DNA of 64,000 bases, from the NCBI RefSeq assembly GCF_047601385.1, contig NZ_JASGJP010000001.1, forward strand, positions 466,487 through 530,486, given 5' to 3'. Below, piece after piece: positions 59,844-63,545 of this stretch. The notes under the pieces were generated by a model. It made no database searches. It had not been told where the DNA came from and saw only the letters and a program-made list of their open reading frames with translations. Position 1 is the first letter of the stretch. Every line of letters begins with the position of its first letter. This DNA is from Ottowia sp. (GTDB lineage: Bacteria > Pseudomonadota > Gammaproteobacteria > Burkholderiales > Burkholderiaceae_C). A program made the translations under genes and the position numbers.

Positions 59844-60890
59844 TCAGTTCGCAATGTCCTGCGGCTGGGCCGCCTGCGCCAGCAGCAGGCCTCGCGCGGC
59901 GGTGCTGGCCGCGATGCGCCCCTCGGCCACGTCGGCCTGCAACTGCGGCAGCAGTGCCTTGACTCGCGGATGCGCGCGGAAGGCTTGTTTGAGCCCGGCG
60001 TCGATGCGCTCCCACATCCACGCCAGCGACTGCCGCTGACGCCGCTCGGCCAGCCGGCCGTTGGCGGCCTGAACGTCGCGGAAGCGGGTGACGGCGGACC
60101 AGAACGCATCCAGCCCCTCGCCCTTCAGGCCGCTGATCTGCATCACCTCCGGCTGCCACTGCGCGGCGGCGGCTTCGGCATGCGGGTCGCCCCGGGCCGG
60201 GTTGCCGTGCAGGCCGAACAGGCGCAGCGCCGACTGGATCTGCGCCCGCGCGCGCGTGGCGGCGGCGGGGTCGATATCGGCCTTGTTGATGACCACCAGG
60301 TCGGCCAGCTCCATCACACCCTTCTTGATGGCCTGCAAGTCGTCGCCGGCGTTGGGCAGTTGCAGCAGAACGAACATGTCGGTCATGCCGCTGACGGCGG
60401 TCTCGCTCTGGCCCACGCCCACGGTCTCGACCAGCACCACGTCGTAGCCGGCGGCCTCGCACACCAGCATGCTCTCGCGCGTCTTCTCGGCCACGCCGCC
60501 CAGCGTGCCGCTGCTGGGGCTGGGGCGGATGTAGGCGTGCTCGTGCAGCGACAGGCGCTCCATGCGCGTCTTGTCGCCCAGGATCGAACCGCCCGACAGC
60601 GTGGACGACGGGTCGATGGCCAGCACCGCCACGCGGTGGCCGCGCTCGATGAGGAAGAGGCCGAGCGTCTCGATGAAGGTGCTCTTGCCCACGCCCGGCA
60701 CGCCGCTGATCCCTAAGCGCAGCGCATGGCCGGTGTGCGGCAGCAGGGCCGTCAGCAGCTCGTCGCCCTGCGCGCGGTGGTCGGCGCGGGTCGATTCGAG
60801 CAGCGTGATGGCCTTGGCCATGGCGCGGCGCTGGGCGGCGGGCGTGCCGTGCAGGATGGCGTCGGTGCTTGCGACGGCAGGCAAAGTCAT
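59844..60890 (-). CDS. meaB: Methylmalonyl-CoA mutase-associated GTPase
   Basis: GISGVPGVGKST, AIDPSS, GSILGDKTRM, ETVGVGQSE, NKAD. Confidence 0.95.
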   Translation of the reverse strand: MTLPAVASTDAILHGTPAAQRRAMAKAITLLESTRADHRAQGDELLTALLPHTGHALRLGISGVPGVGKSTFIETLGLFLIERGHRVAVLAIDPSSTLSGGSILGDKTRMERLSLHEHAYIRPSPSSGTLGGVAEKTRESMLVCEAAGYDVVLVETVGVGQSETAVSGMTDMFVLLQLPNAGDDLQAIKKGVMELADLVVINKADIDPAAATRARAQIQSALRLFGLHGNPARGDPHAEAAAAQWQPEVMQISGLKGEGLDAFWSAVTRFRDVQAANGRLAERRQRQSLAWMWERIDAGLKQAFRAHPRVKALLPQLQADVAEGRIAASTAARGLLLAQAAQPQDIAN

Positions 60891-61300
60891 CGGCTCGGCT
60901 CCTCTGGTAGAGGCTCTTCCCCCCACCGTTCGGGCTGAGCTTGTCGAAGCCAGGGACCAGCCGCTGTCGTACCCTTTTGCCCTTCGACAGCGCCAGAGGA
61001 TGCGGGTGAACGGGCAAGGCCTGTGCGGGAACGCGCCAACTGCTGAATCGCGGCCCAGTCCCCACGGATCAGCGCTTCCTTCTTGGCTCGGGACCACCCT
61101 TTAATCTGCCGCTCGAATGCGATCGCGCCTTCGCGCGCCTCGAATTCGCCCTGCCAGAGCAATTCGACCGGCTTGCGCGTCGCGGTGTAGCCGATCAAGC
61201 CGTCAGCGTGCTGCCGCATGCGTAACTCTATATCGTCGGTTTGTCCTACGTAGTAAGACCCATCCGAACAACACAGCAGATAGACAAAGAAGGGTTTCAA
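60887..61300 (-). CDS. GIY-YIG nuclease (YhbQ/UPF0213-like) with repeat-derived tail
   Basis: FVYLLCCSDGSYYVGQT..RMRQH..ERQIKGWSRAKKEAL. Confidence 0.88.
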   Translation of the reverse strand: MKPFFVYLLCCSDGSYYVGQTDDIELRMRQHADGLIGYTATRKPVELLWQGEFEAREGAIAFERQIKGWSRAKKEALIRGDWAAIQQLARSRTGLARSPASSGAVEGQKGTTAAGPWLRQAQPERWGEEPLPEEPSR

Positions 61301-61346
61301 GCGATGGGGCGAGAAAGGGCTTCGACAAGCTCAGCCCGAACGGTGG
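60923..61346. repeat. Perfect 29-bp inverted repeats enclosing the GIY-YIG core
   Basis: CCACCGTTCGGGCTGAGCTTGTCGAAGCC (60923-60951) and its exact reverse complement (61318-61346); degenerate third copy near 60980-61013. Confidence 0.9.
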
Positions 61347-61385
61347 AGCATAAGCATCGCACGGGCAAGACGCGATACACCGAAG

Positions 61386-63545
<2,160 letters not shown>

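Follow-up and report, generated by a model that had tools for sequence, protein, structure and literature searches.

A small gene for a GIY-YIG nuclease lies between the genes for methylmalonyl-CoA mutase (scpA, or mcm) and its chaperone (meaB) in Ottowia sp., enclosed by a perfect inverted repeat. The locus belongs to a 64,000-nt stretch of contig NZ_JASGJP010000001.1 (assembly GCF_047601385.1, positions 466,487 to 530,486), here called the window, whose own numbering is used for coordinates. On balance the locus is best understood as an Ssn-like unit, in which a single-domain GIY-YIG gene is bracketed by inverted copies of the hairpin that its product most probably recognises. SsnA of Neisseria meningitidis is a 94-aa single-domain GIY-YIG protein (CDD cd10448) that binds the NTS hairpin repeat only as single-stranded DNA (ssDNA) and cuts a few bases upstream of it, and the canonical enzyme does not cleave double-stranded DNA (dsDNA; Chenal et al., Nat Commun 2025, PMC11893778). 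By analogy with SsnA, the enzyme of the window would nick ssDNA at or beside its hairpin, perhaps at moments when replication, repair, uptake or transcription has unwound the DNA. An earlier sequence-only reading of this DNA had proposed a REPtron-like unit built on an enzyme other than RAYT; that idea is not novel, as Ssn nucleases and their hairpin repeats have already been described, and its outline is thus in print for a sister family (PMC11893778). New here are the conserved-loop hairpin class of this clade, the fixed operon position and the open frame into meaB.

The nuclease open reading frame (ORF; 60887..61300, minus strand) encodes 137 aa. Residues 1-95 (61016..61300) constitute the nuclease domain, a size like that of Ssn proteins, and match Pfam PF01541 over residues 4-74 (57.6 bits against a cut-off of 22.6, E = 1.6e-15); the domain is further supported by its match to PDB 1zg2, by residue conservation and by the ratio of nonsynonymous to synonymous change (dN/dS). 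The flanking inverted repeat, located by repeat search and by reading of the sequence, has its upstream arm (in gene orientation) at 61318..61346 on the minus strand and its downstream arm at 60923..60951 on the plus strand. The arms are 29 nt long, 100% complementary and separated by 366 nt, and the 29-mer occurs at these two places only in the window (0 expected, 100 shuffles). The upstream arm ends 17 nt before the TTG start of the nuclease gene, and a TGA within its hairpin loop closes the nuclease frame on the upstream side. Past the domain, a tail of 42 codons plus stop (60887..61015) is translated first through a degenerate arm and then through the left arm, where it reads ...WLRQAQPER..., and its TGA (60887-60889) overlaps the meaB ATG (60888-60890) as ATGA, with GGAG 9 nt 5' of the ATG. 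These 42 repeat-encoded residues are read as a translational-coupling linker, not as a protein domain. The degenerate arm (60980..61013, plus strand), recognised by sequence reading, is of the CCGTTCAC type with a decayed loop sequence and has intact counterparts in three homologous loci (L001, L004 and L006). Both perfect arms are of the CGG type, and the degenerate arm is the decayed CAC-type partner of the left arm; together these two form a single decayed palindromic unit immediately 3' of the nuclease domain. The layout in gene orientation is arm, gene, decayed arm, inverted arm. The exact repeats, the degenerate copy, the core of about 95 aa and the ORF that runs through the repeats into the meaB start had all been picked out by the sequence-only reading, and all proved real.

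The conserved-loop hairpin and its dispersed palindromes

Each arm is a small hairpin, designated hairpin H, with a covarying 5-bp stem and the conserved 11-nt loop GAGCYTGTCGA. In the upstream arm the stem GGGCT/AGCCC (61317-61321 and 61333-61337) encloses the loop GAGCTTGTCGA at 61322-61332 on the coding strand, and in the downstream arm the stem GGCT/AGCC (60933-60936 and 60948-60951) encloses the same loop at 60937-60947 on the plus strand. For covariation, 159 distinct arms were gathered, drawn both from the focal genome and from 80 related loci. The five nucleotides that adjoin GAGCYTGTCGA on one side are paired with the five on the other in 77-93% of these arms, with frequent compensatory swaps: GC and CG occupy stem position 3 in 71 and 66 arms, respectively, while stem position 4 is CG in 56, GC in 47 and TA in 35. 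From stem position 6 outward, pairing is at background. The same loop is accordingly found on different stems, including GCCCT/AGGGC, GTGGT/ACCAC, ATCCT/AGGAT and GCGCT/AGCGC. Its general form is GAGC-N3/4-GTCGA (11-12 nt) on a stem of variable sequence, with the variant GAGCG(A/G)AGTCGA in Chloroflexi and Bacteroidota.

The hairpin is dispersed in the 4.0-Mb focal genome, where a 16-mer core has 22 copies at ≤1 mismatch and a control gave 1 match. Sixteen of the 22 copies pair into eight tight palindromes whose arms are 12 nt apart. These palindromes, each made of two hairpin units back to back, are oriented and imperfect, about 110 nt long, and consist of one arm of the CCGTTCGG type and one of the CCGTTCAC type; they are scattered after genes, most of them directly 3' of stop codons. 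Given eight genomic palindromes with arms only 12 nt apart, the focal gene is seen to occupy the loop of such a palindrome. The description of REP-like repeats around the gene in the sequence-only reading therefore holds as regards the repeats themselves and needs amending as regards their arrangement.

Both 29-nt arms recur without a single change in Xenophilus azovorans (L002, 1455-1483 and 1850-1878), although the enclosed protein is 89% identical and synonymous divergence (dS) is 0.6. Such identity points either to strong constraint on the arms or to their homogenisation against the repeat family. The literature search found no paper on the repeat sequence or on its peptide translations. 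The repeat is presumably the source of the spurious peptides ...FDKL(R/S)(A/P)NG..., ...LRQAQ(G/P)ER... and ...VRAELVE... in many bacterial phyla. A scan of 60500-61700 with Rfam returned no family at E ≤ 1, and the NCBIfam scan gave just a sub-threshold match to a group-I-intron endonuclease (TIGR01453, 14 bits against a cut-off of 56). As a candidate terminal-inverted-repeat transposon or miniature inverted-repeat transposable element, the locus has the inverted repeats and neither a target-site duplication nor an encoded DDE-type transposase; the bases outside the arms (..TGCT on one side, GGGG.. on the other) form no direct repeat.

The nuclease clade, its repeat and its inheritance

Homologues of the nuclease were collected from 80 related loci spanning several phyla (38-89% protein identity), and hairpins with a verified stem were counted up to 250 nt upstream or 350 nt downstream of each gene. 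A nearby hairpin is present at 50 of the 80 loci, on both sides at 22 of them, with 3.0 hairpins per kb close to the gene versus 0.09 per kb in the far flanks, an enrichment of about 33-fold. Hairpin-flanked homologues come from Beta- and Alphaproteobacteria, Bdellovibrio, Myxococcales, Chloroflexi, Bacteroidota and Ignavibacteriales. Typically, a sense hairpin precedes the start codon by 26-37 nt and an antisense hairpin comes right after the domain, often with extra arrays further downstream. Some of these arrays have 6-12 alternating units of the hairpin, recurring about every 40-80 nt, through which the nuclease frame is free of stops (L013, 1792-2240; L009, 1783-2050; L018, 1799-2015; L021, 1801-2040).

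Presence of the gene also goes with repeat abundance. Genomes were drawn from the family, one per genus, and from the order, and those with at least 10 exact copies were classed as repeat-rich. In the family draw 7/10 gene carriers are repeat-rich versus 11/141 non-carriers (p = 1e-5), and in the order draw 12/19 versus 27/382 (p = 4e-9), by Fisher tests that ignore phylogenetic relatedness. A specific tie of this GIY-YIG clade to the GCTGAGCTTGTCGAAG repeat is thereby supported. Both checks suggested with the sequence-only reading, namely that the repeat should flank the clade across genomes and that copy number should track the gene, came out in its favour.

Its further suggestion, that the nuclease may be the cognate enzyme that spreads the repeat, stands as far as this tie goes. 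It fares less well against the many repeats found where the gene is missing. Exact copies number 132, 72, 47 and 43 in four complete genomes without the gene (G440, G506, G408 and G483, respectively) and 295 in a fifth that is 87% complete (G452), and no homologue of the focal protein was detected at E ≤ 0.01 in such repeat-rich gene-less genomes. A distant small GIY-YIG protein as substitute was considered and rejected: a PF01541 scan found only a UvrC-sized match in G408, G452, G483, G504, G506 and G524, and in G440 a UvrC-sized match plus one weak match in a 260-aa frame, with no small GIY-YIG. RAYT was likewise rejected as an alternative mobiliser, since the PF01797 genes of eight genomes have 1-kb surroundings free of hairpin H; this includes the RAYT-like gene of the focal genome (C1:1601963-1602289) and those of six relatives, and the RAYT-like genes of repeat-rich gene-less genomes are likewise without a flanking hairpin. 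In view of the gene-less genomes, the data do not require the nuclease to be a cognate mobiliser, and these genomes set a clear and testable limit on that idea. The enzyme may have a role in spreading or in policing the repeats. That it is their "mobiliser" can be no more than inferred, because no target-site duplication is visible and hydrolytic GIY-YIG nucleases have no known strand-transfer chemistry.

The gene has a long history at its present site. The order mcm, nuclease, meaB is found at 23 of the 80 loci, and L011, whose contig ends before meaB, is probably a 24th. The syntenic genera, from two families, include Xenophilus, Variovorax, Rhodoferax, Polaromonas, Hydrogenophaga, Ideonella, Pelomonas, Piscinibacter and Pseudothauera. 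Across syntenic loci nuclease divergence broadly parallels that of MeaB and Mcm, and the dN/dS of the nuclease (0.07-0.19, median 0.11) indicates purifying selection. In the focal genome the gene is single copy and is the only small GIY-YIG gene. The nuclease gene is no recent insertion. The sequence-only reading had the location right in placing the gene between scpA and meaB; its word "inserted" misleads, as the same position is occupied in many genera, and a fresh insertion is at odds with a fixed position in at least 23 genomes, with the single copy and with the dN/dS. The gene is not jumping at present and has been inherited at mcm-meaB across many Comamonadaceae and some Rhodocyclaceae, with selection keeping it functional much as happens with RAYT genes.

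Distribution within the family is nonetheless patchy, with the gene carried by 9/150 genera. The empty scpA-meaB site that the sequence-only reading said should be sought was found in relatives. All 20 non-carriers examined have mcm directly upstream of meaB, nine of them with little or no gap, and in the clearest cases the two genes overlap as ATGA or GTGA. The exact loop GAGCYTGTCGA is absent from all 20 of these mcm-meaB stretches. In others the gap holds different cargo, judged by eye from the domains: an RHH antitoxin with a PIN toxin (L114, L117 and L132), GNAT acetyltransferases (L130 and L131) and an NYN/PIN-like gene (L119). Such varied small cargo marks the junction as a recurrent landing place. 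Public sequencing runs that match the locus are metagenomes only, sharing ≤15% of words, with no isolate or RNA data among the matches.

A landing place of this kind, together with the patchy distribution, invites the explanation that the gene is a selfish element of the homing type, a parasite that would cut intact, independently existing palindromes and be copied into their loop by repair with the arms as homology, its landing at mcm-meaB having become fixed. The gene does lie exactly at the 12-nt loop position of gene-less palindromes, repeats are plentiful where it is absent, its genomic contexts in other taxa are unrelated, and some genomes, such as G532, carry two or three close copies. 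It also resembles the homing endonucleases I-TevI and the Seg proteins in its GIY-YIG catalytic domain and in being situated inside its own possible target site. However, the focal genome has one copy in spite of eight intact palindromes, and both the divergence at a shared locus, about that of MeaB and Mcm, and the strong purifying selection speak against a homing parasite. Homing GIY-YIG enzymes have a separate DNA-binding domain, whereas the focal protein has one Pfam domain only, with neither linker nor DNA-binding domain, and its gene is chromosomal and fixed in position, with no intron or phage; nor does canonical SsnA cleave dsDNA. A homing origin is for these reasons considered unlikely, if still the most serious competitor to an Ssn-like unit.

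Relation to Ssn, UPF0213 and RAYT systems

The catalytic Tyr, Tyr, Arg and Glu of the GIY-YIG superfamily are present in the focal protein as Y7, Y17, R27 and E63. Among 65 clade members these four show 95-100% conservation, and they line up with the same residues of the UvrC of the focal genome itself; G19, H31 and the clade motif K67-G-W69-x-R71-x-K73-K74 are also conserved. Two small GIY-YIG families come into question as relatives. With canonical Ssn the clade shares the C-terminal motif QIK(G/K)W-R-K-LI (in the clade QIKGW-R-KK-LI), and over residues 4-78 the focal protein is 40% identical (E = 5e-11 or 7e-10) to L081, an NTS-flanked homologue that serves here as a stand-in for N. meningitidis SsnA. 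L081 is a textbook NTS-gene-NTS locus with the same layout of hairpin, gene and inverted hairpin. With UPF0213/YhbQ (cd10456) the clade shares size, fold family and the N-terminal motifs C-x-DG-x-Y-x-G and YT-x-R-x-P, and its best PDB sequence matches are 1zg2 (UPF0213, BH0048; 2.7e-13) and 1ywl (EF2693; 1.2e-08). The sampled UPF0213-like proteins nevertheless form a group of their own in a tree of 96 columns (SH-aLRT 97), which excludes all but one row of the focal clade, and those of the same order differ in lacking the W69 of K-G-W.

In its organisation the locus resembles the published Ssn systems. Ssn homologues are widespread, with the SRM motif nearby in 71% and on both sides in 42%, and the NTS-ssnA-NTS layout was likened by its authors themselves to insertion sequences and to REP/RAYT systems (PMC11893778). 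Here too, inverted hairpin repeats with further copies around the genome bracket the gene of a single-domain GIY-YIG protein of about 95 aa, 10-20 nt separate the end of the upstream hairpin from the start codon, and repeat abundance correlates with gene presence. The differences concern the repeat and the setting. The loop (GAGCYTGTCGA) is conserved here and the stem varies; NTS shows the opposite, with a variable loop and conservation of the stem and of a 5' CGTC. The focal gene, moreover, is part of a metabolic operon, and its frame is kept open as far as the gene that follows. Membership in Ssn was defined by blastp E < 1e-10 with ≥75% cover to N. meningitidis SsnA and by cd10448 as the best CDD match (PMC11893778); by profile score, which is higher to UPF0213, and by the tree, the focal protein would lie outside the canonical group. 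The clade probably works like an Ssn unit and is not filed here as a member of cd10448.

Several observations weigh against an Ssn-like unit, in addition to the disregard of relatedness in the association tests. Against a UPF0213-like profile the clade reaches about 75 bits, against a canonical-Ssn profile about 50 bits, and the 96-column tree places it as a grade between the two groups, so that with so short a tree Ssn membership is not demonstrated. The published SRM pattern (HGTCWYN(0-2)YYVSBRHN(0-5)WNVSBRGN(0-2)RNCYNB) is unmatched in 60400-61900 and matches only 1 of the 80 homologous loci, failing on the other 79, whereas it is found on either side of the gene in L081 and L110, which served as positive controls. 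The small hairpin alone is thermodynamically ordinary (-3.8 kcal/mol, z = 0.28 and 0.22), for which reason its case rests on covariation, and the long hairpin formed by the tight palindromes, with a folding energy of -30.6 kcal/mol (z = -9), would compete with it. Repeats persist, and perhaps spread, without the enzyme, as in the complete genomes with 43-132 copies and no small GIY-YIG. The open frame into meaB could reflect a functional fusion protein instead of coupling.

The UPF0213 affinity in particular would suit a quite different account, in which a housekeeping repair nuclease of the UPF0213/YhbQ type has come to neighbour unrelated REP-like palindromes in nearby gaps that act on the mRNA, through its stability or the expression of mcm relative to meaB. 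Palindromes set directly after stop codons in REP fashion, repeats that occur without the gene, and hairpins within an operon transcript, where they could modulate expression, are all in keeping with it. It is hard to reconcile with a 33-fold local enrichment of hairpins beside the clade in several phyla and many genomic contexts, with the recurrence of the inverted hairpin-gene-hairpin layout and of an upstream hairpin 26-37 nt before the start at many loci, or with arms that are 100% identical to those of X. azovorans around a protein that is 89% identical. Twenty-two UPF0213-like genes of the same order have no match to the NTS core or the SRM pattern in their 600-nt flanks, hairpin H not having been scanned there. 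Mere proximity of a repair nuclease and unrelated palindromes is therefore improbable. No further literature was found on YhbQ/UPF0213 or on follow-ups of Ssn.

The Ssn-like unit also bears comparison with the REPtron or RAYT-REPIN systems (Nunvar et al. 2010, PMC2817692; Bertels and Rainey 2011, PMC3116915; Ton-Hoang et al. 2012, PMC3333891). As there, the enzyme gene is present once, is inherited vertically and kept under purifying selection, and has at its flanks palindromic repeats that are dispersed through the genome as inverted doublets. The focal enzyme differs in being a hydrolytic GIY-YIG protein, not an HUH/Y1 transposase (PF01797), with no known cut-and-rejoin chemistry; in addition, the RAYT-like gene of the focal genome lies elsewhere, with no hairpin H inside 1 kb, and high repeat counts persist in genomes that have no GIY-YIG gene. 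A bolder version of the Ssn-like reading can be put forward tentatively. The conserved-loop hairpin might be what a second branch of hairpin-specific ssDNA GIY-YIG nucleases recognises, and the enzyme the missing partner of a widespread GC-rich palindromic repeat family, in a domesticated partnership of the RAYT/REPIN kind founded on a hydrolytic nuclease. Nicks at the hairpin would then seed copying or homogenisation of the repeat by the host repair machinery. If the hairpin is recognised by the enzyme, the Ssn principle would extend to a second clade with a conserved loop and a free stem, which could be useful for the ssDNA tool-building proposed for Ssn, and there would be a candidate protein partner for a palindromic repeat that is very common in bacteria.

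Some observations touch on NTS itself. The loop of hairpin H contains TGTCGA, and canonical NTS begins with a conserved CGTCA that is described as crucial for binding (PMC11893778); a GTC next to the stem may be a recognition feature common to both repeats, a suggestion drawn from resemblance only. The focal genome has six canonical Neisseria-type NTS copies (CGTCATTCCCGCG[A/C]AGGCGGGAATCC[A/C]G), all outside the window (G000:C1, positions 178142, 912915, 2248420, 2948055, 3845379 and 3852401). A degenerate inverted copy follows about 20 nt later in all but the copy at 2248420, where it is truncated. The genome has no canonical Ssn gene, its GIY-YIG set consisting of the focal gene and UvrC. 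The exact NTS core is found in 89/401 genomes of the order.

The frame from the nuclease gene into meaB

Both neighbours of the nuclease gene are firmly identified and are read from the same strand. Upstream in the operon, scpA/mcm (61386..63545, minus strand) matches Pfam MM_CoA_mutase (1.2e-239) and B12-binding (1.3e-20), and downstream, meaB (59844..60890, minus strand), for the G-protein chaperone of the mutase, matches Pfam MeaB (8.3e-110). The DNA between the nuclease domain and meaB was compared in the 23 syntenic loci, the focal one included. The linker is made of repeats, is 21-627 nt long (4707 nt in total) and is traversed by the nuclease frame up to meaB. At 15 of the 23 loci the nuclease is in frame with meaB with no intervening stop, six end in an overlap of the ATGA/GTGA type and two stop 11-16 nt before the meaB start. 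Over the 4707 nt there are 2 stops in the nuclease frame versus 29 and 59 in the other frames. Outside the mcm-meaB operon the tails of homologues mostly extend 0-40 aa past the domain.

The simplest reading is that the host is under selection to retain translational coupling of meaB, which in the empty sites is coupled to mcm. Without an insert, mcm and meaB would be coupled through their ATGA or GTGA overlaps; with one, the survivors seem to be only those arrangements in which ribosomes that have translated the nuclease gene go on across the structured repeats and reach the start of meaB. Such survival would account for the repeat-encoded tail here and for the in-frame GIY-YIG-MeaB fusions elsewhere. 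The locus shows how a nuclease-repeat unit can live within the operon of an essential pathway, all surviving arrangements keeping translation into meaB.

Fusions of this sort are common in public data. A protein database search with the GIY-YIG end of one of them gave 858 matches, and among the 120 matches listed nearly all combine PF01541 with PF03308 and bear the name MeaB or "LAO/AO transport system kinase". It has hence to be asked whether the nuclease is a working part of a GIY-YIG-MeaB protein, or an operon partner in the mutase pathway, with the repeats as mere linker; in favour of this are the stop-free frame at 15 of 23 loci, the hundreds of such proteins called and the purifying selection on the nuclease domain, but it is made very doubtful by the different frames in the focal genome and five others, which overlap as ATGA/GTGA, by two more loci that stop 11-16 nt upstream, by linkers of 21-627 nt built of repeat hairpins, by the free-standing state of the clade in most other taxa, and by the roughly 94% of family genera that have mcm-meaB and no nuclease. 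Coupling through an open frame would explain the hundreds of puzzling "GIY-YIG-MeaB" annotations. The same clade also runs in frame into a SpoU methyltransferase (PF00588) or a GNAT protein (PF00583/PF13508) in P0003, P0007, P0008, P0010 and P0098, so that run-on into the downstream gene is not unique to meaB.

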